Source of the DNA: Oligoflexales bacterium
GTDB lineage: Bacteria; Myxococcota_A; UBA9042; DTJE01
Direction: 5' to 3'
Assembly: GCA_012840965.1 (NCBI GenBank)
Contig: DUVQ01000121.1
Location: 14,907-78,906 of the forward strand
DNA length: 64,000 nt
Below, piece after piece: positions 636-18,651 of this stretch. The stretch's first letter is position 1. Each line of letters begins with the position of its first letter. Position numbers and translations under genes: made by a program. Under the pieces are notes generated by a model. The model worked only from the letters and a program-made list of their open reading frames with translations, was not told where the DNA came from and did not search any database.

Positions 636-648
636 CAGGAGGTAAGTC

Positions 649-2973: not shown

Positions 2974-3063
2974 GCCTTTTTCAGAAAATCCCCAGGGATC
3001 CTTTTTGCTGTGCTGTGGAATAAAATCCAGCCGAAGTGCGTTCTTGCAAGCACTGGAGGTCGT

Positions 3064-3666
3064 ATGGCCATTTGGAAAAGTCGCAAGTCAAATTCAGAAA
3101 GATTTAAAAGGGAGGCGCTGCCTCACCTTGATGCCGTTTATCGTTTCGCGCTGACCATGACCCATGATGGAGCTTTGGCCGACGATTTGGTTCAAGAAAC
3201 CTACATGAAGGCGTTGGCAGCTTTTGATTCGTTTCAAGAGGGCACCAATTGTAAGGCTTGGCTGTTTCGTATTTTGCGCAATACCTTCGTGAACCAGGTT
3301 CGTGACAGGCGTAAAGAGGTGGTTGTTGAGGAGATTCCTGAAGGTTTAGGGGCTTTATGGGCTGATTCTTCCTCGTTTTCTGACCCAGAATCCGCTGTGA
3401 TCCTGGCTTCAACGCGCCAGCAATTGCAAAACGCCTTGAATGCATTACCAATCGACTTTAGAACAGCGGTTTCCTTATCTGATATTGAGGGGCTGACGTA
3501 CCAAGAAATCGCTGATGTCATGGCTACCCCCATTGGAACTGTTATGTCCAGGCTGTATCGCGGCAGGCGGATGATGAAGGAGTATTTGTTGAGACAAGGT
3601 CAGCAAAGCAACTCACAAGGAAAAGTACTGTCATTAGTTGGTTCAAAAACTGGAAGGGGAGGTTGA
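3064..3666 (+). CDS. ECF-type RNA polymerase sigma-70 factor (RpoE-like)
   Basis: Sigma region 2 (DLVQETYMKALAAFDSF...WLFRILRNTFVNQVRDRR) and region 4 (LTYQEIADVMATPIGTVMSRLYRGRRMM). Start chosen at the internal ATG with a GGAGG RBS; the ORF track extends it to 3010. Confidence 0.8.
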   Translation: MAIWKSRKSNSERFKREALPHLDAVYRFALTMTHDGALADDLVQETYMKALAAFDSFQEGTNCKAWLFRILRNTFVNQVRDRRKEVVVEEIPEGLGALWADSSSFSDPESAVILASTRQQLQNALNALPIDFRTAVSLSDIEGLTYQEIADVMATPIGTVMSRLYRGRRMMKEYLLRQGQQSNSQGKVLSLVGSKTGRGG

Positions 3667-3667
3667 T

Positions 3668-4384
3668 ATGGACTGTGAACACCTGCCCAAATATGTGGAT
3701 TTTTTCTTGGATGGTGAGTTGGCGGACGTGGAGCATGCCGCCATTGAGGCTCACTTGCAGCAGTGCGAATCTTGTCGCGAAGTGATTAGTCGCGAATCAC
3801 GCTTTAGAGCCGCATTACGCCAATCTTTGCGTACGGTTGTGGCACCTGGCAGCCTTAGGGACCAGATTGAGGCCAAGATCGACTCGGCTGGCAAGTCGAG
3901 ATACCTGCCGACGTTGGCGTATGCTGCTGGAATCGCACTTATAGCTGGCCTTGGTTATGCGGTGGTGGCAAACATCATTGCGAATCCAGGGTTTGAAGAG
4001 CAGGCAATAGCCTTTCACCAGCAAAACGAAAAGACCGAGATTGTGGGTAATAGATCTGAGGTTGATTCCTTTTTGAAGATCAGGGCTCCGTTTTCGTATC
4101 AGGTTCCGCTTGAGGATACTGGGGACATAAAGCTGGTTGGCGCACGGCTTGCCACGGTTGGTGGTAATCCTGCTGTGGTGTTCTTGTATGACGGTGGTGG
4201 ACGCAGATTTTCTGTGACTCAGTATAAGCCGCCCTCTGATTGGCAGCCTGGTCCCGCCAGGATTGGGCGCCAGGAAGGGTACACATACGCGACATATGGG
4301 GATGGTGCTTTGGTCCAAACGCTGGTGGGCGATATGCCTGAGGCTGAGCTGACCAAAATTGTTCCTGCTGCCTGGCAAAAGTAG
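3668..4384 (+). CDS. Zinc-finger (zf-HC2/ZAS-type) anti-sigma factor with a single transmembrane helix
   Basis: H-x3-C-x2-C motif (HLQQCESCRE). Transmembrane segment LAYAAGIALIAGLGYAVVANII. Starts 1 nt after the sigma stop with a GGGGAGG RBS. Confidence 0.7.
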   Translation: MDCEHLPKYVDFFLDGELADVEHAAIEAHLQQCESCREVISRESRFRAALRQSLRTVVAPGSLRDQIEAKIDSAGKSRYLPTLAYAAGIALIAGLGYAVVANIIANPGFEEQAIAFHQQNEKTEIVGNRSEVDSFLKIRAPFSYQVPLEDTGDIKLVGARLATVGGNPAVVFLYDGGGRRFSVTQYKPPSDWQPGPARIGRQEGYTYATYGDGALVQTLVGDMPEAELTKIVPAAWQK

Positions 4385-4403
4385 GGGCGTGGCTGGACGA
4401 GGA

Positions 4404-6092
4404 CTATTTAACAAGTAATGAATTTCCAATAAAACGCGTTTCGATGGGTTCGCTTGGATTAAGGCTTGAAAGTGCCAATTCCACTGCCTGAAGCGCATTT
4501 TGCATCCAATATTCCAGGTAAACGGCGTCGGCCTCGTCGGTAAGTCCCAGTTTTACAGGCTCTAACTCTTTTAATTTGGGGCGCAGTTGCTGTCCATCAA
4601 ACGCAGCCACCAATAGCCGTTTTACATCCTCGGAATCTAAGGGTTCAAGGGAGACGGCGCCATCAATAATATTTCTGGCCCAAGCAGTTGCCAGAATGTT
4701 TTCAAAGGTTGCTTTAACCAGTCCAGCTGTCGCTTGGTCCGTCCCAGGGGCATACCCTAGTTTATCCATGGCAAACCTGACCATGAAATCAGCCCGTGCT
4801 GTCAATTGCTTGGCCCAATCTGCATCCTGCGTCGTTTGAAAGTTTCGAACCTGGAAACCGCTACCAACGAATTGGCCAATCATTGGCAAAAAAGCTGCAA
4901 GTGCAGTAAGGCTGGCAGCAATCTCTTCACCAAACAGGCTGAGTTGCGAAGAGCCCAGGATTTTTCCAATGATGCTGCGAGCCTTTATGTGGGCAGGTCT
5001 AACTACCTGGACGCCAGCTTTAAAAAGCTCAGCTGGCCAAGCGACAATCAGGAGGTCTGCGGCTGTTTCCAGGTTATTTTGTGACAGTTCCTGAAGCCCC
5101 AAAGACATGAAGGACAGGGTGCGGTCTGAGGCATCCTTCCAAGCCTCAGAGTCCATCGGGTCTGTTTCAACTGCAGCAAAGACCCTGTTTACAAGCAAGG
5201 TCATTTCCTGGATGTATCCAGATATGTCAGCGCTTTCTTCGGCGATTGCAAGGGCCTTCCAAAAGAAAAGTTTCGAATCGCTTTTTAAAACTTGTAATCC
5301 AAGGGCCGTCCCTTCAGCTGTCCTGGCCGAGATTTTCCCAAGTTGCTTTTCAATTCGTTCAATCAGTGTTTGCTTTAGTTCGGCTAGGACTATCGGCTCG
5401 AAAAGCGAAAAACGGTCCAAACTACGTGGAAATCCAACGTCTTCAAGGCGGGCCTCTCGGAAATGTTCAGCTTGGTCTGCTATTGAAGCTATGGTGTCAC
5501 GACGGCCAGCTTGAATTAGCGAGTGAGCCTCTTCAACTCCGGATGCATAAAGCAATTCCATCAGTTGGCGCAGCGGTGCCACATCGTCCGGAGTGTTGCA
5601 CACTACCAAAAATACACCGTCAGGAGAGTTGAAAAAGACATCATCTGGAATTGAAACGTTTTCTGCCTCTTCCTGGGTGTATACCGTCGCTTTTGAAAAA
5701 ATTCGCAGCGCTATAGTTTCAGGACCAAGCTCGTTTACAAACTGGACAGCAAAATCCCAAGACTCCGCTAGGGCCAGTCCCATGACTTGGTCGAATTTTG
5801 CAGGCTCCAAAGCCGCGTCTCTCCAGATGGCCAGATCCACGAAAGTTTGGCGTTGCTCTTTTGTTGCAAAAGGTAAAAGTTCAAAAGCGTCCTCAATGCC
5901 GATGTCTCTAACTAAATGAAATACTTCGTCGTTTCGTAACGCCTTGAAAACAGCTGGTAAATCTTCTGTTTCAGTTAAAATTCTAAGCTTGTCGGTACCT
6001 GATAATCCGGCGAAATTTTTGGGTAGACTTACCGATTGTTGTGAGGCGCCTTGTGTGGCTAACATCTTGGTTTTATGTGGCTTTGGTTCCAT
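4404..6092 (-). CDS. Hypothetical protein (562 aa, no recognised domain)
   Basis: Long ORF with coding-like composition. No family recognised by eye. Confidence 0.4.
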   Translation of the reverse strand: MEPKPHKTKMLATQGASQQSVSLPKNFAGLSGTDKLRILTETEDLPAVFKALRNDEVFHLVRDIGIEDAFELLPFATKEQRQTFVDLAIWRDAALEPAKFDQVMGLALAESWDFAVQFVNELGPETIALRIFSKATVYTQEEAENVSIPDDVFFNSPDGVFLVVCNTPDDVAPLRQLMELLYASGVEEAHSLIQAGRRDTIASIADQAEHFREARLEDVGFPRSLDRFSLFEPIVLAELKQTLIERIEKQLGKISARTAEGTALGLQVLKSDSKLFFWKALAIAEESADISGYIQEMTLLVNRVFAAVETDPMDSEAWKDASDRTLSFMSLGLQELSQNNLETAADLLIVAWPAELFKAGVQVVRPAHIKARSIIGKILGSSQLSLFGEEIAASLTALAAFLPMIGQFVGSGFQVRNFQTTQDADWAKQLTARADFMVRFAMDKLGYAPGTDQATAGLVKATFENILATAWARNIIDGAVSLEPLDSEDVKRLLVAAFDGQQLRPKLKELEPVKLGLTDEADAVYLEYWMQNALQAVELALSSLNPSEPIETRFIGNSLLVK

Positions 6093-6234
6093 TTGTAATC
6101 CTTAAAAAGCAATCTTTGCTGGCTTTACCCAGCTTTTGTTGTTAAACAGACGCCAGCTTGCAAAAGCGCCGTTAGACAAGTAGTCTACCGCAGTTTTGGT
6201 TTGATACTTTGTTCAAGTTCGTAATCAAATACTA

Positions 6235-9138
6235 ATGGGGCTAAAAATGGCTTTATTAAAACAGTGGGGTGGGGTGGCCACGCTAGTTGTTGCTTCCATC
6301 ATTCTTATTGCTGGTGTTTGGGCGCCAGGTCTTTGGGAACCTTGGGAGATGGACCAATCCCAAGTCAGCCGACTTATGGCTGAGCCGCCTTTGGTTTTGG
6401 TGGCTGAGCCAGGTAATGGTGAAATAAAGGGCAAATTGGAAGCCGGGCTTGCAGATCGAGCGAAGATTGAAGCTTTGTCCGGGGGTTACGATGCGATAAG
6501 GACGGCTACCAGCGACAGGATTTTCGAAGCTGTTGTCATCGATATTGATGGGAGCATCAGCAGTAATGACGATGTCGAGGGCGTCAAGGCGTTGGCAAGC
6601 TTCCTTGCGTCTTCGGCTGTAAAAAACCGTTCGACTAAATTTATCATCTACTCTGGTGGCATGCTTGATTTGCAGGCTATTCACAGCGCAATAAAGGCCC
6701 AGTGGGCGCAGCAAGAAACGACCGATGAGCCACATGTAGCCAAGATGAATGGCTTGGCAGCCTCTTTGACTGAATTTGCCACTCCCGATGAGTTGGTTCC
6801 CAGCGTAAAGTCAGCGTTGGCTGGTCACTCGTGTATTGCCCAGTTTAAAGAGGGTGGATACACCGTATTTTTGGCGCCTTTGCACCCGTGGCTTGTATCT
6901 AAATCATTCAAGATTTTTGGGTTTAACGAGTTTGGCGCTCGTTTTCCATCAGCGCTGATGGGAATTCTTACCCTGATCGTCATCTTTTTCGGGGTTAGAC
7001 GTGCGTTTGATGAAAAAACAGCCATTTTATCGGTCATTATTCTTGCCTCAAGCAGCCTCTTTTTGATTGGTTCTCGTTTTGTACAACCAGGTGCATCGAT
7101 TCAATTTGCCTTGGTGCTAGCTGCCACTGCGTTTGGCGTGGCAGTAACAGGAGCTTTTCGAGTTTGGCCTCTGGTTGTGCTGGGACTGGCCACGATTTTG
7201 CTTTACTTTGCCGGTGGCATGACCGGTCTTGTCATCATCGTCAGTTTGGTGCTTGCTTATCCTCTGGTGGTTGGAAAGTTGTCGCGCCAGACCTTGATTG
7301 CGGCCGCGGTGGTAGTCGGCTTGCTGCTTGTTGGCACTATCCTGACTTTTGTACCTGATGCAGCCTACTTCCTCCAGTTTAGATTTACCAAGGCCCTGTT
7401 CAGCGACGGGATGCAGCCTGTGTATCACAACTACGCTTTTGCCATCAAGCAGATCGGTTTTGGGCTGTTTCCATGGTCTGCCTTTTTGCCCTTAGTATTG
7501 GCATATGCCGTTTCCTTCAAGGAGCCCAAGTCTACCAAAGTCCTTGTTCTTATAGGTGTTTTGGCGCCACTTGGCATGCTGATGATCTCCATTTTTGCCT
7601 TTGATCAGACTTTTTATTATGGAACTCCGTTTTTAGCTGTTCTGATCGCTCTTTATCTGCGTGATCGCGAGGATGATGCACTGGAATCGCGGTTGCTTGC
7701 CCTCTTTGGATTTGGACTGTTTTTGTTACTGGCCAGAAATCTTCTGAAATCACCAGACCCAATAATTTCATTTTTAACCACCGACCCAATGTTTGTCGCC
7801 CCCGGCAAGGGAGACCCCGCATTTCCTGAAAGCGTGTCATTACCTAGCTTGGCTAAGCTTGCTTTGGTGGTTATAGCAGGCCTACTTTTTGCGACCAGTA
7901 CCAAAGCCTTTTCGCTTTTGACCAAGTTGCCAGCCTTTTTGGCGAGGGGGCGCAACTTCTTGATCGTAATGCTGGTGATGGTCGGGGTTATTCTTATCGA
8001 TATCCTCGTTTTTGTAGCGTTGAAATGGGGGCTTTTGGTGAATGGACCTTATCGTGGCAAGGTCCTTTTAAGCATCTTGCTGACCGGTCCTGACATTGTG
8101 TTGCTGTATCTGGTGTGTCTGCTCCTGATTGCAGCTCGTTATGCCGAATCCATTGGAAAGTATGTCAAAAGCGATCTACCAAGGCGCTTTTGGGACGCTT
8201 TGTTGAAGCTGGAAAAGGCGTCTGTCTCTACAGTTGGCATTGCTATCGCAGCCATAGTGTTCGGGTTGACGGTGGCATTTCAGTTGGTTCCAGAACTGTC
8301 TTTGCATTTGTCCCAAAAGCATATAATTGAGGCTTACAAAGTGTCGAATGCCAAGTCGCCTGGAGAGCTTTTCAGGCATCAGCTTGGGCAAAGCAAATCG
8401 AATGTCTATGTTACTGATATCCCAGAGGTAACAGCACGAAATCAAGTCATTTCCAGATTGAAAGACAAATCCAAACGCTCGTTTTTCATCCTGCCAAAAA
8501 ATCAGTTTAGCGAAGTTAATCATGCAATTCGGGCGGCGGGAGGCTCTTTGGCAGTTCTGGATGATTCATCGTCGAGACTTGTTTTAGTCTCCAATACCTT
8601 GGCTGCTGGGGAAGTGGATTATAACTGGCTTGCTGACGCTACTTTGACTGAAGAAGAATTCGCCAAAATTCCCGGGATGCAGACAACATCTGTTGTCTTC
8701 GATGACAAGATCGAGTTAGTCGGTGTCAAGCTTGGAGCGCCAACCGCGAAACGTGGTAGGGAGACTGATATTAAGCTGTATTTCAAGGCTCTTGATAAGA
8801 TTCCGACCTCCTATAGGATGTTTATGCACGTCGACAGAGTTGGGTCGTCATCCCGAATTCATGGTGACCATTGGGTTTTGAACTTGGTAAAGGAAACTGA
8901 AGACCAAAATCAGTGCGTTGGATGTTACGCAACGACCCATTGGCTCAAGGGCGACATTGTGGTTGACACATACAACATCAAGGTCCCTATTGGTGCTCTT
9001 TCGGGGTTGTACAACGTTTGGATTGGCTTTTATCAACCTAGCGGCGGCAGACGCTTAACAGTGACTTCCTTTGACAAAGAAAAGGTCAGGCATGATGGCA
9101 ATAACCGGGTCAGCGTAAGCCCTGTAACCGTGGAATAG
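6235..9138 (+). CDS. Large polytopic membrane protein, PMT_2/ArnT-like GT-C glycosyltransferase fold, with a ~180 aa soluble insertion in the first loop
   Basis: 967 aa with more than 12 predicted transmembrane helices. The motif GYTVFLAPLHPWLVSKSFKIFGFNEFGARFPSALMGILTLIVIFFGVRRAF resembles the PMT_2 signature (...fGvnefaaRlpsal...). Confidence 0.5.
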   Translation: MGLKMALLKQWGGVATLVVASIILIAGVWAPGLWEPWEMDQSQVSRLMAEPPLVLVAEPGNGEIKGKLEAGLADRAKIEALSGGYDAIRTATSDRIFEAVVIDIDGSISSNDDVEGVKALASFLASSAVKNRSTKFIIYSGGMLDLQAIHSAIKAQWAQQETTDEPHVAKMNGLAASLTEFATPDELVPSVKSALAGHSCIAQFKEGGYTVFLAPLHPWLVSKSFKIFGFNEFGARFPSALMGILTLIVIFFGVRRAFDEKTAILSVIILASSSLFLIGSRFVQPGASIQFALVLAATAFGVAVTGAFRVWPLVVLGLATILLYFAGGMTGLVIIVSLVLAYPLVVGKLSRQTLIAAAVVVGLLLVGTILTFVPDAAYFLQFRFTKALFSDGMQPVYHNYAFAIKQIGFGLFPWSAFLPLVLAYAVSFKEPKSTKVLVLIGVLAPLGMLMISIFAFDQTFYYGTPFLAVLIALYLRDREDDALESRLLALFGFGLFLLLARNLLKSPDPIISFLTTDPMFVAPGKGDPAFPESVSLPSLAKLALVVIAGLLFATSTKAFSLLTKLPAFLARGRNFLIVMLVMVGVILIDILVFVALKWGLLVNGPYRGKVLLSILLTGPDIVLLYLVCLLLIAARYAESIGKYVKSDLPRRFWDALLKLEKASVSTVGIAIAAIVFGLTVAFQLVPELSLHLSQKHIIEAYKVSNAKSPGELFRHQLGQSKSNVYVTDIPEVTARNQVISRLKDKSKRSFFILPKNQFSEVNHAIRAAGGSLAVLDDSSSRLVLVSNTLAAGEVDYNWLADATLTEEEFAKIPGMQTTSVVFDDKIELVGVKLGAPTAKRGRETDIKLYFKALDKIPTSYRMFMHVDRVGSSSRIHGDHWVLNLVKETEDQNQCVGCYATTHWLKGDIVVDTYNIKVPIGALSGLYNVWIGFYQPSGGRRLTVTSFDKEKVRHDGNNRVSVSPVTVE

Positions 9139-9150
9139 TTTGGGGGAATC

Positions 9151-10029
9151 ATGCCCGATGCGTTTGACGGCGTGCCTTTATGGATTCTAAAAGCCACTGT
9201 ACTGGCTTTGGGGGCTACCTTTGGGTCTTTTGCGAACGTTGTGATTTACAGGTTGCCTCTAGGCAGATCGATTGTGTATCCCGGGTCGGCGTGTGCAAAA
9301 TGTGAAACGCCCATCAAGTGGTTCGACAACATTCCAGTCATCAGCTACATGCTGCTTTTGGGCAAGTGCAGGGTATGTAAGGACCCAATCTCGATAAGGT
9401 ATCCATTAATTGAGCTTTCAGGTGCTGTTCTATCGCTGGCCTGCCTTTTACTGGCCATAAATGTTGGGTTTGAAGTCGCTGATTTGGCAGGCTTGGCGGT
9501 CCTGTGGGCGTTTTTCTTCGCATTTTGCTTCCTGTTACTGGTCATCACCTTTATCGATCTTGAGCATTGGTGGATTCCACCCTCACTGGTTCTTCCGGGA
9601 ATAGCGATTGGGTTGCTGACCAATATTTTGCTTGGAGATTTGACTAGGGTAAGTTGGCTTGACGCATTGATTGGAATGGTCGCCGGAGCCTTGCCCATAT
9701 GGCTGATTCGAGTCTTGTATTTCAAGATTCGAGGCCATGAAGGTATGGGGCTTGGCGACGTTTTTCTGATGGCAATGGTCGGAGCGATGCTTGGCTATGT
9801 CGCCTTACCTTTTGTGCTACTTGCAGCATCGATTCAAGGCTTGATAGTTGCGATTCCCTTGTCGCTAAAAAAGAAGATATCGGACCCACCATGGGAACCT
9901 GAAGAAGGCCATGAACACCAGGAAACAATGGGCAAAACAGCTGTCCCATTTGGTCCTTTCATAGCGTTAGGTGCTCTTCAGTGGCTGTTCTTTGGCGATG
10001 CAATAGCCGCACTGCTGTTTCAGTTCTAA
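9151..10029 (+). CDS. pilD: Type IV prepilin leader peptidase / N-methyltransferase (A24 family, PilD)
   Basis: N-terminal Zn tetra-Cys motif (CAKC...CRVC). The family's conserved residues are present (FIDLEHWWIP, GLGDVFLMAMVGAMLG). Membrane protein of 292 aa. Confidence 0.8.
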   Translation: MPDAFDGVPLWILKATVLALGATFGSFANVVIYRLPLGRSIVYPGSACAKCETPIKWFDNIPVISYMLLLGKCRVCKDPISIRYPLIELSGAVLSLACLLLAINVGFEVADLAGLAVLWAFFFAFCFLLLVITFIDLEHWWIPPSLVLPGIAIGLLTNILLGDLTRVSWLDALIGMVAGALPIWLIRVLYFKIRGHEGMGLGDVFLMAMVGAMLGYVALPFVLLAASIQGLIVAIPLSLKKKISDPPWEPEEGHEHQETMGKTAVPFGPFIALGALQWLFFGDAIAALLFQF

Positions 10030-10056
10030 AAGTCTCTGAGACTAATCGGACAATTT

Positions 10057-10109
10057 GGGGGAAGGGGAAGGGGCAGGGACAGGGGAAGGGGCAGGGACGG
10101 GGACGGGAA
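10057..10109. repeat. G-rich hexamer tract (GGGGAA/GGGGCA/GGGACA)n, G-quadruplex-capable, intergenic
   Basis: Direct reading: gggggaaggggaaggggcagggacaggggaaggggcagggacggggacggg. Confidence 0.8.
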
Positions 10110-10116
10110 GACGTTT

Positions 10117-10182
10117 GTGCTGATCTGCAGGATTTGGAGCTAAAAGAAGGTCGAGAGGGCACCCAGCAACATGGTCCGGGGG
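10117..10182. repeat. Copy A of a ~65 nt conserved intergenic element (GTGCTGATCTGCAGGATTTGGAGCTAAAAGAAGGTCGAGAGGGCACCCAGCAACATGGTCCGGGG)
   Basis: About 95% identical to 18419-18484. Both copies directly abut G-rich hexamer tracts. Confidence 0.75.
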
Positions 10183-10477
10183 CAATCCTGGAGGGCGCTA
10201 TCGGGAGTTGCCGGGACCCGACGTCTTTTGGTTGACATGAAGGCCGCGAAGCGGCCCGTCCGGGCCAAAAGGATAAACGTGCACGTTAGCAATCGTATAT
10301 TTCGCCCGGACGATGTCACCAAGAGACAGTCGGGATGGCTACGGGAGATTTTGGGTCCGGAAGGATGCCCCCGGACATGTTTTAAAACTCTAACGAAGAG
10401 ATAAAACGCCAAAAAGAACAAACAATCAGGAGTCATAACAAGCTAGTTAGCAGGATCTGCAACAGGGTCAGTATCAG

Positions 10478-10502
10478 AGGCGGGGACAGGGGATGTGGGG
10501 GG
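10478..10502. repeat. G-rich tract (GGCGGGGACAGGGGATGTGGGGGG), intergenic
   Basis: Direct reading. Lies just downstream of the minus-strand HEAT gene stop. Confidence 0.6.
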
Positions 10503-10508
10503 ATTGCG

Positions 10509-12125
10509 TTAGCGGCGCTGGAGTGCGAAGAGTAGGGGTTCGAGTTCGTCGACCCAGAAGCTGCCGCCCTTTGCTTCCTTGTCAGCCTGGATCAAGCGCT
10601 CGACGTCCTTGACGGTAGATTTGTCACCGAGACGCCAAATCCCAATGATCAGGAAGCGTCGCAGGTCGGTCTCTTTTGGGTTCACAGTTGGATAGAAGGT
10701 CAACAGCGCTTCCAGCGCCTTCCTACTGTGATCACCCTTCACGTTACTAAGCAAAATGGCCGCCTTCTGGGAAGCAACGATATCTTCACCCTTAAGCACG
10801 CCAATCAGGCAATCAACGTCGTTCTTAGCGCACTTTTGAAGTACCGAGATCATTGACTGGAACTCGCCAGACTCTTCACCAGTGGTTCGCGCTACAACCA
10901 GCTCACTCTTGTCAGCCTTCAGCATCTTTTCCAGGGCAGGCAGTTCATCCCATGAAATCCCCATAGCGACCGGTTTCAGCAATGGGGCGCGGAAGGTCTG
11001 CAGCTTGGAGGTTTTGTAGATATCCAAAAGGGCAGGCATTCCAGCATAACCTGGGAGCATACCCAGAGCAGTAGCCGTATCGAGGCGAAGCTTAGCGTCA
11101 TTATCTGGGTTAACGATGATCTCTTTAAGCTGAGGGATAATCTCAGGAGAACCAACGTTCCACAGCGCCAGCATGGCCATCGTGATGCGGTTTTGCTGAG
11201 TAATCTGCCAGGAACGAGTGACACGGTCATCAACACCAACAGGTGGGTTCAAAGGCTTTGCAAGGCTCTTTGCGATGGCCGGCGCAGCTGAAATCTCACG
11301 AAGATCACCCAAAACCTGATAAATCTCGGGGCCATCTTGCCATTCCCATTCATTCATCCCAAGGCGACTAGCCGTATTCGCCAGTTCCTCGATCATTGGA
11401 CCGTATTTGGAACGGTCATTAGCCTGCACCGCAACCAAAGGCTCCACAACCTTCGGCCCGATCCTCGCAAGAGCCTTCCTGGCGGCGGTGTACATCTTTT
11501 CACCACGCTGGGTCTTTATAAACATCCCCATGATCAGGTGAGGGATTGCCTCTTCAGAACCAATCTCTCCAAGAAGTCTGGCAGCAGCAGCATTGACCTG
11601 GATACCCTGCAGGTTCGGGTCATTACGCAGTAACTGAATAAACAGTTTTTCGTGCTGCTTCAGGTTATCCTTATCAATCTTGGCCAGAGCATTGATTGCA
11701 TTATGTCTGGCCTTCGGTGCATCACTGGTTGTCAACACCTCGATCAGCGGTTTGCGCAGCTCAGGGATTGCAAAATCCTCTGCGACGGCTGCAGCCTGAG
11801 GCGCAGAATCCGGATCCCGCAGTGCAGCGGTCAGCAGTTCCACTGAGGCAAGAGGCTCATTGATGTTCTTTACAGCGGCAAGGATGTCATCCTTGAACTG
11901 GCTGGTTGGGAAAAGCTCTAATAGAATCGGTAAGCTGTCAACACAGTGCAGCTCACCGGATTCTTTAATCGCCTTTTTGCCATTGACGGGGCTACGCAGC
12001 AATTTAGCCCAGCCATTACACGTGGTCGGAGTGCCTTTGACGCATGCAGTTTCAAGCGTAAGGGCAAACGCCACTGTCACGGTTAACAGAACGACTAGCG
12101 GTTTTCTATCCACGGTGTCCTCCAC
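10509..12125 (-). CDS. HEAT/PBS-lyase-like repeat protein, secreted
   Basis: 538 aa. Repeated helical A-rich units (AAARLLGEIGSEEAIPHLI...). N-terminal hydrophobic signal. Confidence 0.55.
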   Translation of the reverse strand: MEDTVDRKPLVVLLTVTVAFALTLETACVKGTPTTCNGWAKLLRSPVNGKKAIKESGELHCVDSLPILLELFPTSQFKDDILAAVKNINEPLASVELLTAALRDPDSAPQAAAVAEDFAIPELRKPLIEVLTTSDAPKARHNAINALAKIDKDNLKQHEKLFIQLLRNDPNLQGIQVNAAAARLLGEIGSEEAIPHLIMGMFIKTQRGEKMYTAARKALARIGPKVVEPLVAVQANDRSKYGPMIEELANTASRLGMNEWEWQDGPEIYQVLGDLREISAAPAIAKSLAKPLNPPVGVDDRVTRSWQITQQNRITMAMLALWNVGSPEIIPQLKEIIVNPDNDAKLRLDTATALGMLPGYAGMPALLDIYKTSKLQTFRAPLLKPVAMGISWDELPALEKMLKADKSELVVARTTGEESGEFQSMISVLQKCAKNDVDCLIGVLKGEDIVASQKAAILLSNVKGDHSRKALEALLTFYPTVNPKETDLRRFLIIGIWRLGDKSTVKDVERLIQADKEAKGGSFWVDELEPLLFALQRR

Positions 12126-12236
12126 AAGTGATTTGTTGTCACTGAAAGTACCTTATGGAGTATAGTTTGACCGTTGCCACAAGGTCAAGAGGGTTGGCCA
12201 CGTCTATTGACCTTTATTTTTGCGTTGAGGGGGAGA

Positions 12237-12788
12237 ATGAGCCCAAAAAACATGTGGAGAAAGGCCGTTCCGGGCATTTTATTCCTGTCGCTGCTTTCTT
12301 GTGGCGGCGGTCAGACTGCTGGACTGGATGTCGACAGCCTTCTGTTTGGTCTTGAAAAATGCCAGGAAAATTCGGATTGCCAGACAAATATGTGCTCTAT
12401 GGGAATGTGTTTGGGGTTTTTAACCGTAAGTTCCGACCTGCAGCGTGCCGAAATAGGGGCCGTTTTTGGTAAAGCGGCGCCAAGAGCACGAGAGCGCTTG
12501 ATTGACGCTTTGGCTGTGGTGCTTGAAGACGGGGATACATCAAGTGTAATCAGGGCCAGAGCCGCGGATGGGTTGGGTTATTTAGGTGGTGACAGGGTAG
12601 AACAGATGTTGCAGCCAGCCTTGGCTGAACACTCGGAAATTATAAGATTTTTTGCAGCGCGTTCCCTGCATGCCTTGGGTAATTCAGTTGGTACCGAGAC
12701 TCTGCTGACCTTCAAAGACCATGAATCTGAGGCCGTAAGGATAATGACCGAGTTAGCACTGGCTGATCACGGCGAAAACAGGAAGTAA
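12237..12788 (+). CDS. HEAT-repeat lipoprotein
   Basis: Lipobox LLSCGGG after the internal ATG with a GGGGGAG RBS. HEAT-like units (ADGLGYLGGDRVEQMLQPAL, RFFAARSLHALGN). The ORF track start at 12174 is probably too early. Confidence 0.5.
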   Translation: MSPKNMWRKAVPGILFLSLLSCGGGQTAGLDVDSLLFGLEKCQENSDCQTNMCSMGMCLGFLTVSSDLQRAEIGAVFGKAAPRARERLIDALAVVLEDGDTSSVIRARAADGLGYLGGDRVEQMLQPALAEHSEIIRFFAARSLHALGNSVGTETLLTFKDHESEAVRIMTELALADHGENRK

Positions 12789-15685
12789 AACGTGTCTTTA
12801 CCCTTGTCTGCGAATCCGTGCGCGTAGCCTATTTTTAAAGTTGCATCTCTGGCCAAGAACAGATTTATTCCCAAAGATAGTTCAGCCCCAATTCCCCAGT
12901 TAAATCCGCTTGAGCTGTCATTTGTCCAGGTCCTACCCAGATCCGCGAAGACGGCTCCATGGAGGTAGCGTGCAGACAGTGGAATTGTGCCCAAGCTGCG
13001 AAAGATTGGAAAAATTGGGAAGCGATACTCAAGATTGCCAAGAAAGTAAGAGTTTCCCACGAAGGCGTTGTGACCGTAGCCACGTAAGTAACGCCCAGAT
13101 AGTGGCTGATTGTTAATAATTGCCATCACCATGTCTTGTACTGGAAAACCGCCTTGTCCGTAGACTTCTATCGTTCCTATGTCCCCAATAGAAGTCGCTC
13201 CAGATGTAAGCAGGGCCAGCACATGACCATGTCCCCAGGGCATTGGTACATATCCGTCAAGGGTGCCAGTGATTGTTAAGGATTTTCCATCACTTCCAAG
13301 CCATTTGTGGCGCCCTCCAACAGATATGCCACCAGAGAGGCCGCGCTCGGTTGATACAGATTTCGCCCAGGAACGCAGCCAAGAAAAAGACGCAGAAGCG
13401 GTAAGGCCAGCCAGTCTGCGGCTTTCTGGACGAGAAGGTGTGGTAGATGCCGGTTCGTGGGCTTTAGGTATTTCGCCAATCATTTTCCAGCGTATGGAGT
13501 AGCCCAAAGAAACCCTGAATGAAACCACCCGACCAGGAATTGGTAAGGAAGCTCCGGCGTTTATCATCCAGTTCCTGGCGTCCACTTCCTTGATTTGATC
13601 ATCAATTATGGCGCGGTCTGTTCCATTCCAGGTCACAACATCAAGGGATAAATTAGGAAAAAGGCCAAAGTACTTGTACTGTAAAGCCCCGTAGGGTGTA
13701 ATCCTCGTCAAATCAGCATCAAAAGCGGCCAAAAAATAGTGACGGTCTAAAACATCAGAACCAGTAAATTCAAAGCCAAGCCTGTTATTACCCCCGCTTG
13801 AAAAAGCCCACCTTGGTATTATGGAGCGCGGCTTTAACGATGTCGCTCGATAAGGAGTGGCGTCGCCATCGAAGTCAGTTTCCATTGGGAAAGGTGGTGG
13901 AGTTTGGGCTGATTCTAAAGGGCTGTCCGCATGGGGAGCCTTGGTGTCATCTATGGCGATCCAATTCTGTGGCTCCAAGGGTAACATCGCCAAATCATAG
14001 CCTTTTGGGCCATATGCACTGTAAACAATCGAAGTGCCAGCTGGAGAAACGGCCGGCCAAAAGGCGCCTCCAGGTTCCCTTGTAATTCTAAATAGTTGTC
14101 CCGTTGCTAATTCAAGCGCGAAAAGGTCAAAAACACCTTCATGGTCGGAAGAGAAAACTATGAACCTTCCATCAGGCGTGGGCACTGGGTCGCGATCAAG
14201 AAATTTATCGTTTGTTAACTGTTGCAATTGGCCAGTTTCAAGGTTTACTGACCATAAGTCCCATTGGCCGTCTTTTGCACCTGTAAAAACGAGATGCTCT
14301 GATCCTGGCAAAACAACTGGGTCACCCAAATCGCTGAATAATCCAGGTTGGATGATGACTTTCTCACTTTCTGAAGGTTTGTCTTCGCCCACCGCAAATG
14401 AGACTAGCGATGCTTGATCATAGTCTGCCCGAACGTATGCAATGGTCGTGGCATTAAACTTGTCATCAAAGACGGCCAAATCCCTGGCCCTGCTTCTGGA
14501 GGTCAGCTTTTTGAGACCATCTTTTAATTCAAAGATCTCGCCATATTGATAAACCAGACGATTCCAACTGGTTGATGTTGAAAAGATGCGACCACGGTAT
14601 GCAGCAACTGAATGACATCCCCCATCGCAGTCGACCAAGCGCTGTGGCTTTTTATTAGGCCTTTCAATGTCGAGCTGGAACAAACCAGACATGGAACGCC
14701 CGTCGGATTTTACCCACACTACATGTCTTGGGTCCTTGAACACGGCTCGCCCATTGAATTCGCCGCCTTTAGTAAGTCTTTCACCTTGGATTAGACCCAG
14801 TTGCGTTAATTCGGCCAAGTGCTTTTCACTGTCTGCGATAACCTGCGCGTGAAATTCACTCCACAACGAGTAAAAAGTGGTTCCAAAGTGACGTTTTGCC
14901 ACTGTGTTCAGCAAAAACGGTATCACGTTCGCGCCGTAGTTTTTAATGAATTTGGTAATCGTCTCTAGCCCAAACTTTTGTGCCAAAAATTCAAAGAAGA
15001 AGCCTCCAAACAGGTATGGGGAAGTGCCTCTTGGCCAGATGATGGGAGTTACTGTAAGTTGTGATAATTGTGGAAAGGTCCCACCCAAGGCTGCCTGGCG
15101 AAGCATCATTTTGTACTGGCTGGAGCCAAGTCTGCCTCCATCTGGAAGTTGGGACTCCATAAATACTGCCAAGCCTTCGATGAACCATTTCTGGATTGCC
15201 CCGTTTGGCAGAAATGTTTTTCCGATGACCTTGTTGACAAATCCTGGGATCTTGGACACTTCGTCCATGTGCACGATGTGGGTGTATTCGTGGACAACTA
15301 GTGATGAAAGATAATCTGAAAAAACGCCCAACTCTGAGTCTGGCCCGGGTGGCGCAGCAAAAAGTCGAATCTTGTCGTATGGATGAACTGAGGCCCAACC
15401 ATTAGCCGAATCAACATCATCCCAAAGTGATATTTCGACGAGCTGACTTGGGTACAGTCCCAAGAGTTCGCCAACCCACTGGTGCGAGGAATTGGCAATG
15501 CTCATCACCCTGCGAGCCATAAGTTCGCCACCTTGATAAAAGTGAACTTTAAAGTGCTCTGAACTCAGGGTTTTCCAACGTATATTTGGGTCAGTGCCGG
15601 CAAAAGCTTTGGCTGGTGCCAGCAAGAGGATTACCGCCAATATGGCAAGTAAGGCAAAACTGCGTGGTGATGCGATGTTGCTCAC
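12767..15685 (-). CDS. Large secreted protein with an HExxH motif, TolB-like beta-propeller repeats and a C-terminal beta-rich domain
   Basis: 972 aa. Signal peptide. HEYTHIVHMDE. Repeats of the form DG-x-IVFSSD...DLF. C-terminus ends in aromatic-rich beta strands. Confidence 0.45.
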   Translation of the reverse strand: MSNIASPRSFALLAILAVILLLAPAKAFAGTDPNIRWKTLSSEHFKVHFYQGGELMARRVMSIANSSHQWVGELLGLYPSQLVEISLWDDVDSANGWASVHPYDKIRLFAAPPGPDSELGVFSDYLSSLVVHEYTHIVHMDEVSKIPGFVNKVIGKTFLPNGAIQKWFIEGLAVFMESQLPDGGRLGSSQYKMMLRQAALGGTFPQLSQLTVTPIIWPRGTSPYLFGGFFFEFLAQKFGLETITKFIKNYGANVIPFLLNTVAKRHFGTTFYSLWSEFHAQVIADSEKHLAELTQLGLIQGERLTKGGEFNGRAVFKDPRHVVWVKSDGRSMSGLFQLDIERPNKKPQRLVDCDGGCHSVAAYRGRIFSTSTSWNRLVYQYGEIFELKDGLKKLTSRSRARDLAVFDDKFNATTIAYVRADYDQASLVSFAVGEDKPSESEKVIIQPGLFSDLGDPVVLPGSEHLVFTGAKDGQWDLWSVNLETGQLQQLTNDKFLDRDPVPTPDGRFIVFSSDHEGVFDLFALELATGQLFRITREPGGAFWPAVSPAGTSIVYSAYGPKGYDLAMLPLEPQNWIAIDDTKAPHADSPLESAQTPPPFPMETDFDGDATPYRATSLKPRSIIPRWAFSSGGNNRLGFEFTGSDVLDRHYFLAAFDADLTRITPYGALQYKYFGLFPNLSLDVVTWNGTDRAIIDDQIKEVDARNWMINAGASLPIPGRVVSFRVSLGYSIRWKMIGEIPKAHEPASTTPSRPESRRLAGLTASASFSWLRSWAKSVSTERGLSGGISVGGRHKWLGSDGKSLTITGTLDGYVPMPWGHGHVLALLTSGATSIGDIGTIEVYGQGGFPVQDMVMAIINNQPLSGRYLRGYGHNAFVGNSYFLGNLEYRFPIFPIFRSLGTIPLSARYLHGAVFADLGRTWTNDSSSGFNWGIGAELSLGINLFLARDATLKIGYAHGFADKGKDTFYFLFSP

Positions 15686-15753
15686 GCGATAAAGATATCA
15701 CATGGCTCGTGGATCAACGTGCTCAAATTGAGCATTGCCAGGAATAACGTGGC

Positions 15754-16152
15754 TTATTCCTGTGCGGCCTCAGGTGCGGCTTCCTTTGCAGGTTCGGCAG
15801 CAGGTTCGGCAGCAGGTTCGGCAGCAGGCTCTGCGGCAGGCTCTGCAGCTGGTTCGGCAGCAGGCTCAGCGGCTGGTTCGGCAGCTGGTTGTTCCTCGGC
15901 TTTAGGGGCCTCTGCTGGCGGCTGAACCCCTGGTTCCTCGACCACAACGTTGGACAGTTCTATGAACTTGTCTAAATTAGCCAAGTAGTTAGCGCATTCG
16001 TCTCTGGCAGTCAGTTGCCCTGCTTTTTCACAGGCCAGACTTGCTGCATCCTTATCACATACCGCTTTCTTAAGCTCGTTACATTCGTTTTTGCCACACC
16101 CAGTCGCAAAACCTATTGCAACAACACCAGCCAGGATCAATAACCTTTTCAT
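15754..16152 (-). CDS. Small lipoprotein with a C-terminal (AAEP)n low-complexity tail
   Basis: MKRLLILAGVVAIGFATGC lipobox. GGAG RBS 9 nt upstream of the internal ATG. Tail is PAAEPAAEPAAEP... Confidence 0.55.
   Translation of the reverse strand: MKRLLILAGVVAIGFATGCGKNECNELKKAVCDKDAASLACEKAGQLTARDECANYLANLDKFIELSNVVVEEPGVQPPAEAPKAEEQPAAEPAAEPAAEPAAEPAAEPAAEPAAEPAAEPAKEAAPEAAQE
15788..15895. repeat. 12 bp tandem repeat (GCAGGTTCGGCA and variants, about 9 units) inside the lipoprotein gene
   Basis: Direct reading. Encodes the (AAEP)n tail on the minus strand. Confidence 0.8.
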
Positions 16153-16393
16153 CACGATGTACTCCAAAGAAGACGTTCCATCGTATCACAACCGCCCGAA
16201 CTTAAAAGTCCCTTATCTCTGTAGTTTCAAGCGAAAAATACCCCATTTGAGGTTCTTTGTAAGGTTTTTTTCGGGCCCTCGCTTCCATACCAAGTGACCA
16301 CCAAGTAAAACAAAAGTAGACATGAGGACGTATTTGTTCGTTCTATTTAGGGCTATCCACGTCATCTGATGGCGTGCTAGTATCGCGTAAGTT

Positions 16394-17800
16394 TTGGCGG
16401 AGCCTAAGGTGGATCTGGTTGAACTGATCAAGGCTGCAGGTGTTGTTGGTGCTGGTGGGGCTGGATTTCCTACCCATGTCAAGGCCGCTGCAAGGGCGGA
16501 AATATTGATTGCCAACGGTGCTGAGTGCGAGCCTTTACTTGTTACTGACCAATGGACTGTGATTAGTCACGCCAAGTTGATTGCTGAAGGCATGAGAGCC
16601 CTTGGTAATAGGGTGGGTGCGAAACGCCTGATTTTTGGCGTGAAATCCCATTATACCGACGTGATACAGGCGATGACTCCCTTTTTGGATGGGGAATATC
16701 CCATCGAAATAGGTCTGATCGGGGATTTTTATCCTGCCGGTGACGAGCAGGTTTTGGTACACGAACTGACTGGGCGCGTGGTGCCCGAGGGTGGAATTCC
16801 TTTGGATGTGGGGGTGGTAGTTAGCAATGTGGCAACCCTTGCGAACATCAGGCGTTCCATTGACGGCCAGCCTGTTATTCGCAAGGAAGTGACTGTAACA
16901 GGGCTGGTCCGTAACCCAGGTGTCTATGAAGTCCCAATTGGTATTTCAACTGCGGAAGTCGTGGCAGCCGCGGGAGGGGTAACTGACGAAAACGTCGCAA
17001 TCATCGAAGGTGGCCCCATGATGGGCATGCTGATTGAAGACTGGTCCAAACCTGTAACAAAAACCACTGGCGCTTTTTTGGTGTTGCCTGCTGACAACGA
17101 GGTGGTGATTACCAGACGGCGTCCTCATGCTGCTACTTTTCGCCAGGCCCTTGCTGTCTGCTGTCAGTGCCGCATGTGTACTGACCAGTGTTCAAGGTTC
17201 TTGCTTGGGCATCGTATCGCGCCTCACCTTGCGATGAGGGCCTTGCTAGCTGGTGGGGCTTATGATTTGGATGGGGTTGATGCTGAGGGCAGGCGTTTTG
17301 GTCAGCCCAGCGGAGACGACATCCCATTTGAAGTCAGGGCGATGGGCTACTTGTGTTCCCAGTGTGGAATCTGTGAGGTCTGGTCTTGTCCCCTTGGTTT
17401 ATCTCCAAGGTACGTTTTTGGGGACTATAAAGCTGGGATGATTGCAAGAAAACAGCCAAATCCCTTGAAAAATCGACCAGAAACCGCGCTAGAACAGCAA
17501 GCTTGGCTCAGGCTGCCCAAGCCAAGACTCGTAGAGAGGCTTGGACTGAAAGACTATCTATTGCCATACAAGGGCACTACCGTTCCAGTTGCAGATCCTT
17601 GGGAAGTTAACATCAGGCTAAAACAGCATGTCGGAGCCCCAGCCATTCCCATTGTAAAAGTGGGCCAAGCAGTTTCAGCAGGTCAATGCATTGCTGAGAT
17701 TCCGACGGGAGCGCTTGGGGCCAGAGTTCATGCATCCATGACAGGAACGGTTGCAGCGATAACTGACCAGCACATAAAGATTGTTAGGCAAGGTGTCTGA
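16394..17800 (+). CDS. pduS: PduS-like BMC-associated flavo-FeS oxidoreductase (RnfC/NqrA-type NADH-binding domain plus two ferredoxin-type 4Fe-4S motifs; cobalamin-reductase family)
   Basis: Gly-rich nucleotide motif GVVGAGGAGFP. Motifs CCQCRMCTDQC and CSQCGICEVWSCP. Lies immediately upstream of the PduT-like gene. The true start may be the GTG at 16409 (GGAG RBS). Confidence 0.7.
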   Translation: MAEPKVDLVELIKAAGVVGAGGAGFPTHVKAAARAEILIANGAECEPLLVTDQWTVISHAKLIAEGMRALGNRVGAKRLIFGVKSHYTDVIQAMTPFLDGEYPIEIGLIGDFYPAGDEQVLVHELTGRVVPEGGIPLDVGVVVSNVATLANIRRSIDGQPVIRKEVTVTGLVRNPGVYEVPIGISTAEVVAAAGGVTDENVAIIEGGPMMGMLIEDWSKPVTKTTGAFLVLPADNEVVITRRRPHAATFRQALAVCCQCRMCTDQCSRFLLGHRIAPHLAMRALLAGGAYDLDGVDAEGRRFGQPSGDDIPFEVRAMGYLCSQCGICEVWSCPLGLSPRYVFGDYKAGMIARKQPNPLKNRPETALEQQAWLRLPKPRLVERLGLKDYLLPYKGTTVPVADPWEVNIRLKQHVGAPAIPIVKVGQAVSAGQCIAEIPTGALGARVHASMTGTVAAITDQHIKIVRQGV

Positions 17801-17826
17801 TCATTTAATTAAGAGAGGTCCTACAT

Positions 17827-18378
17827 ATGACTTCACTACCGGCGATTGCTTTGATTGAGCTGACTTCCATTGCTCGTGGCGTAGTAGCCTCAGATGCCAT
17901 GGCTAAAACGGCCCCAGTCAAGCTACTTCAGTCCCAGACGATATGTCCAGGCAAATACCTGATAGTCGTAGGCGGCGGCGAAGACCCTGTAAGAGAGGCT
18001 TTTCAGGTCGGCCTACACTACGCTGGCCAGTATCTAGTCGACCACCTTGTAATTCCAAACTTACATCCCCAAGTGCTACCAGCTCTGGCAGCGATGCAGC
18101 CTCTCCAAAAGCTGGAGTCAGTCGGAATCATAGAGACATTCTCTGCAGCAGCAACCGTTTTAGCCGCCGACGCAGCCTGCAAGGCCGCAGAGATCACCCT
18201 AATCGAGCTGCGCCTAGGCAACGGACTAGGCGGAAAAGCCTACCTGACCCTATCAGGCGAACAGTTCTCAGTAGAAGCCGCCCTAAGCGCCGGAGTCGAT
18301 GCAATAGCATCCGGCCTGTTGCTAAGGTCCGAGCTAATCCCAGCCCCCCACCAAGACATGGGCAGGGCTTTGTTGTAG
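17827..18378 (+). CDS. pduT: PduT-like tandem-BMC-domain shell protein (BMC-T) with a conserved cluster-binding Cys
   Basis: Two canonical BMC domains (IALIELTSIARGVVASDAMAKTAPVKLL...; VGIIETFSAAATVLAADAACKAAEITLIEL). The Cys in TICPGKY aligns with the Salmonella PduT [4Fe-4S] ligand (TICPGKF). Confidence 0.8.
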   Translation: MTSLPAIALIELTSIARGVVASDAMAKTAPVKLLQSQTICPGKYLIVVGGGEDPVREAFQVGLHYAGQYLVDHLVIPNLHPQVLPALAAMQPLQKLESVGIIETFSAAATVLAADAACKAAEITLIELRLGNGLGGKAYLTLSGEQFSVEAALSAGVDAIASGLLLRSELIPAPHQDMGRALL

Positions 18379-18412
18379 AGGCGGGGACAGAGGCAGGGAC
18401 AGGGACAGGGAG
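18379..18412. repeat. G-rich hexamer tract (GGCGGGGACAGAGGCAGGGACAGGGACAGGGAG)
   Basis: Direct reading. Adjacent to conserved element copy B. Confidence 0.75.
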
Positions 18413-18418
18413 ATGATC

Positions 18419-18484
18419 GTGGTGATCTGCAGGATTTGGAGCTAAAAAGAGGTCGAGAGGGCACCCAGCAACATGGTCCGGGGC
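18419..18484. repeat. Copy B of the ~65 nt conserved intergenic element
   Basis: GTGGTGATCTGCAGGATTTGGAGCTAAAAAGAGGTCGAGAGGGCACCCAGCAACATGGTCCGGGG, compared with 10117-10182. Confidence 0.75.
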
Positions 18485-18623
18485 AGGGCCAGGGAGACGT
18501 TTCTACAGGTTTTGAACATAAGCTCTGCATTTATGAACGAATCGTTGACAAGCTAGCCGATATGATGCATCATACTCGGCCCGGACTACTTTTCCGCCGG
18601 GAATCAGCCGAAAAAAAAAGAGG

Positions 18624-18651
18624 TTGACATTTACCTTCATGGGTATAGAAT
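18624..18651 (+). promoter_or_regulatory. Candidate sigma70 promoter of the str operon: -35 TTGACA (18624-18629), 16 nt spacer, -10 TAGAAT (18646-18651), preceded by an A9 tract
   Basis: Consensus -35, good -10, about 58 nt upstream of rpsL. Confidence 0.5.

Follow-up and report, generated by a model that had tools for sequence, protein, structure and literature searches.

The window (the whole 64,000-nucleotide stretch analysed, from an Oligoflexales bacterium; assembly GCA_012840965.1, contig DUVQ01000121.1, positions 14,907 to 78,906 of the forward strand) carries G-rich hexamer tracts in the spacers between its genes, and two of these tracts are interrupted by a previously undescribed repeat element of 341 nt. 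The tract unit is CAGGGA or CAGGGG, equivalent to GGGRCA. The 5′ half of the first tract (10057–10109, plus strand; units GGGGAA, GGGGCA, GGGACA and GGGACG; sequence GGGGGAAGGGGAAGGGGCAGGGACAGGGGAAGGGGCAGGGACGGGGACGGGAA) begins 27 nt past the stop codon of a prepilin-peptidase (A24) gene. It is followed by a full-length, non-coding copy of the element (10110–10450, plus strand) and then by the 3′ half of the tract (10451–10502, plus strand; CAGGAT CTGCAA CAGGGT CAGTAT CAGAGG CGGGGA CAGGGG ATGTGG GGGG), which ends 6 nt short of the stop codon of a convergent HEAT-repeat gene; the stretch 10478–10502 is the distal end of this longer, degenerate tract. The second interrupted tract lies in the spacer between a BMC shell-protein gene and rpsL. 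Its first part (18378–18411, plus strand) shares the last base of the TAG stop codon of the BMC gene (18376–18378), and it continues into a remnant of about 70 nt of the element's 5′ domain (18412–18483, plus strand; E = 8.5e-21) and a short tract remainder of only 2–3 units, GGGGCAGGGCCAGGGAG (18480–18496, plus strand). Two further plus-strand tracts are unoccupied. The first (52451–52499) is rich in GGGGCG and GGGGTG and less regular than the other tracts; it lies between a minus-strand gene for a MopE-like Cys-rich protein, whose stop codon (52500–52502) it abuts, and an enoyl reductase/NMO gene. The second (54603–54690) lies in the divergent spacer between the same MopE-like gene and a 2,4-diaminopentanoate dehydrogenase gene. 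The distances from tract to stop codon in the window are 0, 0, 6 and 27 nt (contacts at 18376–18379, 52499–52502 and 10502–10511), and at times the stop codon is fused with the first tract unit (TAGGGCAGG, TGACAGGGG, TAGGACAGG).

The motif GGGRMRGGGRMRGGGRMRGGG, allowing up to 2 mismatches, has 16 matches in the window, all on the plus strand, against 0.02 expected from dinucleotide-preserving shuffles, and TRF gives periods of 6, 12 and 18 for the tracts. An earlier sequence-only reading had described such tracts as intergenic candidates for G-quadruplex (G4) formation. Every tract is present where it was reported, and each lies between called genes; the window is mostly coding, yet not one tract falls inside a gene. 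The (G3+N1–7)x4 rule is satisfied on the plus strand at 10057–10107, 52452–52499 and 54612–54647, where the G4Hunter maxima are 2.4–2.8; the score is 2.36 at 10473–10515 and merely 1.56 at 18380–18404, and the minus strand of the window has a single weak motif of this kind. By the criterion of four or more G3+ runs with loops of 1–7 nt and a G4Hunter value above about 1.5, the tracts are predicted G4 formers, as judged by sequence rules alone. A further G-rich segment (59233–59270, GGGGCAGGTGGGGTGGGGG, G4Hunter 2.16) lies inside the open reading frame (ORF) 57975–60173; it has no hexamer periodicity and stands outside the tract family. The two tracts around the MopE-like gene had been taken as a bracketing pair. 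Both exist, as separate unoccupied tracts, and there is no evidence that they enclose a cassette. Look-ups for the 52.45- and 54.6-kb tracts gave near-identical strains only, in which the tracts are identical.

A direct repeat of 107 nt (family D20) joins 10075–10181 with 18377–18483, and therefore the same unique sequence of about 60 nt follows each of the two tracts. The BMC protein served as the key for an exact look-up of the same locus in other strains, whose spacers were then compared. In strain L005, the spacer between the peptidase and HEAT-repeat genes is 72 bp long and contains one continuous tract, whereas in the window and five other contigs it measures 466–479 bp, the tract being split by an insert of about 340 nt. 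In the spacer between the BMC gene and rpsL, the window holds the first 70 nt or so of the insert and L003 (GCA_040766975.1) a full-length copy; in L005 the copy has undergone an internal deletion and the tract is about 115 nt long, as compared to about 35 nt in the window. Because the spacers of L005, L003 and the window differ by the insert, the tract pairs at 10 and 18 kb are single interrupted tracts: 10057–10109 and 10451–10502 are one tract split by a full copy of the element, and 18378–18411 and 18480–18496 are one tract split by the deletion remnant of a copy. The two tracts formerly seen as flanking the 10.1–10.5 kb spacer thus become one, of which L005 carries the unsplit allele.

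The element at 10110–10450 (nhmmer E = 6e-128; absent at the L005 site) is bounded by ...CGGGAA|GACGTTTGTGCTGAT... on the 5′ side and ...AGCTAGTTAG|CAGGAT... on the 3′ side. Three parts can be distinguished, all read on the plus strand. The conserved 5′ domain (10110–10167, GACGTTTGTGCTGATCTGCAGGATTTGGAGCTAAAAGAAGGTCGAGAGGGCACCCAGC), which belongs to repeat D20, is retained in truncated copies. A long branched hairpin (10168–10381; inverted repeats I1–I3) is closed by a helix of AACATGGTCCGGGGGCAATCC with GGATGCCCCCGGACATGTT, and its inner domains are exchanged or deleted in other copies. The A-rich 3′ tail (10382–10450) ends in ...GCTAGTTAG. The remnant at 18412–18483 breaks off at GGTCCGGGG|CAGGG, through microhomology with the tract. 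Downstream of it, the plus-strand sequence GACGTTTCTACAGGTTTTGAAC (18497–18518) resembles the 5′ start of the element (GACGTTTGTGCTGATCTGCAGGATTTGGAGC). It may be what is left of a second copy in tandem, placed ahead of the rpsL promoter (TTGACA-16-TAGAAT at 18624–18651).

A 21-nt motif from the 5′ end of the element (CTGCAGGATTTGGAGCTAAAA) was used as a metagenome query and returned 83 stretches, mostly from anaerobic digesters and activated sludge, five of which are chance matches in AT-rich DNA. In GTDB genomes, the same motif found one genuine 1.4-kb contig (L007, ‘Bacteroidetes bacterium ADurb.Bin139’) and one chance match (L008). Two scans of viral_contigs gave no match to the element, and a phage origin was rejected on this ground. 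In the related metagenome contigs, copies of the element occur in roughly 40–55 distinct flanking contexts. Every copy has a hexamer tract directly on its 5′ side and hexamers again on its 3′ side, and the orientation with respect to the G-rich strand is identical in all copies. The 61 distinct 5′ junctions read ...CAGGGA CAGGGA CAGGRA|GAYGWTYGTGCTGATCTGCAG and the 36 distinct 3′ junctions ...CATGCTAATTAG|CAGGAT CTGTAG CAGGGA CAGGGA, which gives the general form ...CAGGRA|GAYGWTYGTGCTGAT......CTAATTAG|CAGGAT.... At these junctions, the hexamer phase is kept for at least five units on either side, and therefore the element is placed exactly between two hexamer units. The element is found only in tracts, in fixed orientation and phase. 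Its ends show neither terminal inverted repeats nor a duplicated unique target sequence, the flanks being tract units; the only repeat seen in the terminal-repeat test is a short internal direct repeat, GCAGGAT(T/C)TG. A classical MITE (miniature inverted-repeat transposable element), with terminal inverted repeats and a target-site duplication, was rejected accordingly.

By the distance between the 5′ motif and the 3′ motif (GGAAGGATGCCCCCGGACATG), the element falls into size classes of 267 nt (the window type), 260, 255, 208, 155, 86 and 463 nt. The 208-nt class has a different inner domain, and the 155- and 86-nt classes have lost inner domains at the bases of helices. The classes differ by 7, 12, 59 and 112 nt. 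As none of these differences is divisible by three and the ORFs present are all short, the element is non-coding; a coding element was rejected because the size classes break the reading frame. In L002–L004, ORFs of 76–84 aa were called at 2095–2421 across the tract and the 5′ domain, with the tract read as GKGKGQGQG...; these calls are almost certainly spurious. In the 463-nt class, an unrelated MITE with terminal inverted repeats is nested within the element. This insert, about 200 nt long and bounded by terminal inverted repeats of 16 bp (GCCCCCAAAATCACCG ... CGGTGATTTTGGGGGC), is a classical MITE from a different family and follows GGGACCCGACG in some copies (L035 at about 800–1260, minus strand; L043; L089, in the minus-strand copy).

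Solo 5′ remnants end at GGTCCGGGG(G)|CAGG, in microhomology with the tract. They are deletion products, since the same loci hold full copies in other strains. A truncation of the kind left by target-primed reverse transcription was considered, since truncated copies retain the end beside the long tract, and was rejected. The counts of G–U pairs and the folding energy favour the plus strand, so that the end retained is the 5′ end; microhomology deletion explains the truncations better because full copies occupy the same sites elsewhere. Head-to-tail tandem copies are found in L019, L049 and L088, and one locus can hold different variants (the full type in L024, variant B in L060 and L069). Divergent pairs of copies in L016 and L089 provided no autonomous master copy; the genes that they enclose are ordinary ones (HAD-like protein, lipoprotein, MBL-fold hydrolase). 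Many metagenome contigs terminate inside the element, which a multi-copy repeat would lead one to expect.

The 355-nt stretch 10112–10466 is predicted to fold on the plus strand at −145.9 kcal/mol (z = −6.6), as compared to −129.2 kcal/mol for the minus strand. The predicted structure has a weak 5′ stem-loop, the long branched hairpin 10168–10381 and the A-rich tail; the tract-like and anti-tract sequences GGGGGCA, AUCCUG and UGCCCCC within the element pair with one another. Across 29 copies, 95.4% of pair cells hold standard pairs, and both partners have changed in six pairs (19 cells), as in the switch from GGCCGC/GCGGCC to GAGTGC/GCACTC. Shuffles gave 7.7 such cells; the covariation score of the copies, 0.047 as compared to 0.034 for the shuffles, was reached by none of 500 shuffles. 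We regard the covariation as supportive of the modelled fold rather than conclusive. In some copies entire hairpins are replaced by other hairpins, and these swaps lend the fold further support. G–U cells outnumber A–C cells (152 against 43), which favours the plus strand as the folded strand, be it as RNA or as single-stranded DNA.

Searches for known RNA families and signals were largely negative. Rfam 15 (including group I and II introns, ribozymes, 6S, RNase P and tmRNA), at the gathering threshold over the whole window, gave only three tRNAs, and at E ≤ 10 over 9900–10700 a single chance-level match. The 10.1–10.5 kb spacer contains no tRNA or tmRNA, and 9900–10700 has no terminator-like site (GC-rich hairpin plus U run). 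The only promoter-like match in the 10-kb spacer is one weak match on the minus strand. Over window positions 1–20000, 25 hairpin-plus-U terminator-like sites were found against 23.6 in shuffles, and intrinsic terminators may be of little importance to the organism.

The related loci, some 0.82 Mb in a sample biased by the way it was fetched, contain 190 tracts, of which 96 lead into the element's 5′ end, 24 follow the 3′ tail, one does both and 69 do neither. Tract length differs strongly between strains at one locus (15 nt in L076 and 117 nt in L074; 65 nt in L032 and 137 nt in L039). The tracts are bacterial simple-sequence repeats of the variable number tandem repeat (VNTR) type, with a copy number that varies between strains at one locus. 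Phase variation does not describe them, as a 6-nt unit causes no frameshift and the tracts lie beside housekeeping genes in all four gene contexts. In related contigs, tracts and elements occur on both strands whatever the sign of the GC skew (for example L010, L020, L039 and L042). The strand shared by all tracts in the window is a coincidence of the window, because tract polarity in the relatives ignores both GC skew and gene direction. A link to the replication strand, of the kind expected for palindrome-associated transposable elements (PATEs) of the IS200/IS605 type, was rejected on the same evidence.

Tract orientation is unrelated to promoters and terminators: the 55 distinct tract sites spread over all four contexts (<< 13, <> 16, >< 16 and >> 10), and a link between tracts and gene orientation was rejected. 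Placement within the spacer is not uniform. Of 27 solo-tract edges that face gene 3′ ends, 12 lie within 10 nt of the stop codon, where uniform placement in the spacer predicts 3.8 (p about 1e-4), and this closeness is seen in both tract orientations. None of the six frames of the hexamer unit contains a stop codon. In L074, an Aminotran_5 (NifS/IscS-like) gene (1689–2939, minus strand) carries a tract in frame, just past a GSACS motif (SGTGSGAGAGSGSGSGTGAGAGSGTGSGTGSGTGSGTGTGP), that reads (Gly-Thr/Ser/Ala)n; the ortholog in L076 has three units, SGTGSGP. This shows that tracts can expand within coding DNA without loss of frame.

More distant relatives give a mixed picture. L094 (63% GC; BMC protein 66% identical) has a (CAGGNN)n tract of about 130 nt at 12745–12880, on the rpsL strand and upstream of the rpsL promoter; the 20 kb examined there hold no element. 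The opposite strand of this tract reads PVPVPEPDPEPDPDPDPEPEPEPEPEP in a 101-aa ORF that is probably spurious. Three other relatives, about as distant, lack both tracts and element in the 13–20 kb examined for each, and one of them, L097, has a plain BMC–rpsL spacer of 137 nt.

Our data establish that the tracts are lineage-specific hexanucleotide microsatellites, almost always intergenic and fast changing in length between strains, and that remnants of the element arise by deletion. We favour, with moderate confidence, the view that these microsatellites host a tract-restricted, non-autonomous element moved in trans by a site-specific enzyme. Tract length would change in both directions through slipped-strand mispairing of blocks of one, two and three units. 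An enzyme supplied in trans would read the hexamer junction and copy the element into tracts; the nearest analogue, by resemblance, would be a MITE-like RNA-gene module on a repeat-targeting recombinase of the IS110 type. Deletions between the internal GGGGGCA of the element and the downstream tract would then yield the 5′ remnants. The fixed junction suggests that the hexamer boundary is recognised, and the conserved fold suggests that an RNA or single-stranded form matters for propagation. A bolder version, in which the fold is a guide-type RNA that reads the hexamer junction and directs the element's own insertion there in the manner of a bridge RNA or seekRNA, and the tracts are kept at gene ends as G4- or Rho-type termination sites, seems to us improbable. 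The element would then be an RNA-guided module without a protein that specifies its own target and homes to G4-forming microsatellites.

Several observations weigh against the favoured explanation. A crude motif search of about 0.9 Mb of partly redundant related loci found no IS110-like or reverse-transcriptase-like ORFs. No autonomous master copy was seen, as no pair of end motifs lies more than 463 nt apart within 6 kb. A single true pair of empty and filled alleles was recovered, and the empty allele could be the product of a precise deletion. If the tracts arose independently, the presence of the same hexamer motif at dozens of loci is unexplained. The support from the fold is modest, at six covarying pairs, with a structure taken from one aligned member of a young, very similar family; the number of pairs changed on both sides does not exceed that in shuffles, 97 of 500 of which reach it. 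The loci were fetched by way of the element's 5′ motif, which biases the counts of truncated forms and of solo tracts.

A serious rival, though on balance an unlikely one, dispenses with a dedicated enzyme. Here exchange between tracts, by homologous recombination or break repair and possibly aided by G4-induced breaks, would spread the element; any donor of the form tract–element–tract could convert an unoccupied tract, the flanks being homologous microsatellites. Fixed orientation and phase follow from such exchange without a recombinase, as do differing variants at one locus, tandem copies, microhomology deletions, the absence of any autonomous copy and 3′ ends that differ in whether the odd units CAGGATCTGTAG are kept. 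However, a conserved and compensated fold of 215 nt is left without a reason, there is no reason why a single sequence family should colonise the tracts, and some flanks hold just 18–20 nt of tract, which is short for RecA-type exchange.

We likewise doubt that the tracts are functional cis elements at gene ends, with the element an incidental passenger. On this account, G4 structures or R-loops on the G-rich strand would stop RNA polymerase or guard the 3′ end of the mRNA, the C-rich transcript (UGYCCC)n would be a Rho-loading site, and one tract would substitute for a bidirectional terminator. The closeness of tract edges to stop codons in both orientations agrees with this, as do the 72-bp convergent spacer of L005, which is mostly tract, the G4Hunter values of up to 2.4–2.8 and the hairpin-plus-U terminators, which are not in excess over 1–20 kb of the window and absent from the 10-kb spacer. 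The tract upstream of rpsL has held its place in the relative with the 66%-identical BMC protein, and the GGGNATC repeats of other bacteria share the stop-codon bias (PMC4692102). The closeness to stop codons could, however, equally reflect a lower tolerance of insertions in promoter-side DNA, and 16 of the 55 sites lie in divergent spacers, where there is no gene end. The several-fold variation in length between strains, the in-frame coding tract and the tract-free stretches in the three similarly distant relatives, L097 included, also speak against it. A conserved cis-regulatory role is disfavoured because orientation is unrelated, length is hypervariable, one tract is coding and three relatives lack tracts in the 13–20 kb examined for each. 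Of the earlier reading, a genome-specific, non-random and intergenic family with G4 potential at gene boundaries is supported, and a regulatory element that brackets genes is not.

The converse possibility, that the tracts are made by the element or are part of it, appears improbable as well. The tracts would be terminal simple repeats, seeded by the element's G-rich ends or built up by repeated copying from a template within it, such as UGCCCC, and unoccupied tracts would be footprints left after recombination between the flanks had deleted the element. At least about three units stand on the 5′ side of every copy, dozens of unrelated loci share one hexamer motif, deletions between element and tract are frequent, and solo 5′ remnants are found where other strains have full copies; moreover, the closing helix holds GGGGGCA/TGCCCCC, and the ends of the element are hexamer-like and in phase (GATCTG CAGGAT; CAGGAT CTGTAG). 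Against this, 69 of the 190 tracts found in related loci show no sign of the element, the tracts are heterogeneous with 12- and 18-nt blocks that are typical of slippage and not of templated addition, and the crude search of related loci found no reverse transcriptase. It is the block-wise composition, the 130-nt tract of L094 without an element in 20 kb and the in-frame Aminotran_5 tract of L074, likewise without an element, that make tracts of this origin less likely. General compositional bias or chance has next to no prospect of accounting for the tracts: the plus strand of the window does have a positive GC skew, but the excess of motif matches over shuffles already refutes this idea, and the hexamer periodicity and the absence of coding tracts from a mostly coding window speak against it too.

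The tract-restricted element was compared with several known classes. The ERIC/IRU repeats (enterobacterial repetitive intergenic consensus, or intergenic repeat unit) are intergenic, non-coding, long imperfect palindromes of enterobacteria with size classes that arise by internal deletion or insertion at fixed points; ERIC repeats are about 127 bp long and not bound to a microsatellite target. By description, the element resembles them in being an intergenic imperfect palindrome with size classes and differs from ERIC in its tie to a microsatellite; no similarity in sequence is expected. Dong, Waldo, Mino, Kibi and Koshi are animal retrotransposons without long terminal repeats (non-LTR) that, like the element, enter one kind of simple repeat in a single orientation and hence always have it on their flanks; such microsatellite-specific retrotransposons are eukaryotic, autonomous, encode a reverse transcriptase and are 5′-truncated. 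Unlike these, the truncated copies described here keep the 5′ end of the best-folding strand, and no reverse transcriptase was seen in related loci. Like the element, PATEs derived from IS200/IS605 lack terminal inverted repeats and target duplication, insert beside a short target in a specific orientation and are hairpin-rich. The element differs from them in that its orientation is not linked to the replication strand and its conserved structure extends over its whole length, not just subterminal hairpins.

Two described systems come closer. The GGGNATC and GGGGA(C/T)T repeats of Xanthomonas and Nostoc are abundant, intergenic and over-represented in non-coding DNA, vary in unit number even among close relatives, lie preferentially within 50 bp of a stop codon and sometimes overlap it; they form G4 structures in vitro, have no assigned function and are explicitly reported as unassociated with mobile elements (Rehm et al. 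2015, PLoS One, PMC4692102). The tracts resemble these repeats, with units of 6–9 nt, in being G-rich, non-coding, variable and stop-proximal and in satisfying the G4 rule. They differ in that a hexamer, in contrast to a heptamer, equals two codons and allows in-frame coding copies (L074), that divergent spacers are not avoided (16 of 55 sites), and that they are the specific home of a repeat element, in a different lineage, an uncultured bacterium from anaerobic digesters. The second system, ssr9/MITEPpu9, is a small-RNA module on ISPpu9 of the IS110 family, with a fixed position in repetitive extragenic palindromic (REP) sequences and with orphan and tandem copies (Pares-Guillen et al. 2025, NAR, PMC12288879). 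Like ssr9/MITEPpu9, the element is a short non-coding module without a transposase, has orphan and tandem copies, takes a fixed position and orientation in an intergenic repeat and lacks classical terminal inverted repeats and target duplication; its RNA structure is a predicted one. Unlike ssr9/MITEPpu9, it targets a microsatellite and not a REP palindrome, at 40 or more sites as compared to eight, and a crude search of the related loci yielded neither an IS110-family gene nor A/B-box relatives.

Three other features of the window are recorded here. A 12-nt tandem repeat, GCAGGTTCGGCA (15788–15890, 8.6 copies), lies in the minus-strand ORF 15754–16167 and reads (AEPA)n. The product of this ORF is 128, 132, 137, 137, 150 and 157 aa long across the six strains L001–L006, and because gene length differs among them, the repeat is a coding VNTR, with a CAGG-type periodicity like that of the L094 tract. 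At 16394–19092, genes for an RnfC/PduS-like flavoprotein and a tandem-BMC shell protein lie directly upstream of an rpsL-rpsG-fusA-rpsJ operon, in which rpsJ follows fusA directly, with no tuf between them. This neighbourhood is kept in the relatives L094 and L097, with BMC proteins just 64–70% identical; in L094, a CoA-ligase-like gene sits between the BMC gene and rpsL. Large Cys-rich repeat proteins with MopE and Dicty_CTDC motifs are encoded at 38130–47300 and 52500–54569, with tandem DNA repeats of 153, 141, 111, 108 and 165 nt, and the MopE-like product is 646, 670, 684 or 689 aa long, depending on the strain.

What is new is the coupling of G4-type hexamer microsatellites with a structured, tract-specific repeat element, which brings together two subjects that are otherwise apart, the G4 microsatellites of bacteria and non-autonomous elements with a specific target. 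There is a practical side, as the elements break metagenome assemblies and gene callers put spurious ORFs across them. Public metagenomes hold natural empty, filled, truncated and tandem alleles for work on the mechanism. If the fold were indeed a guide RNA, RNA-guided recombination would extend to a new class of target, and the element would be a bacterial counterpart of the elements that home to microsatellites.

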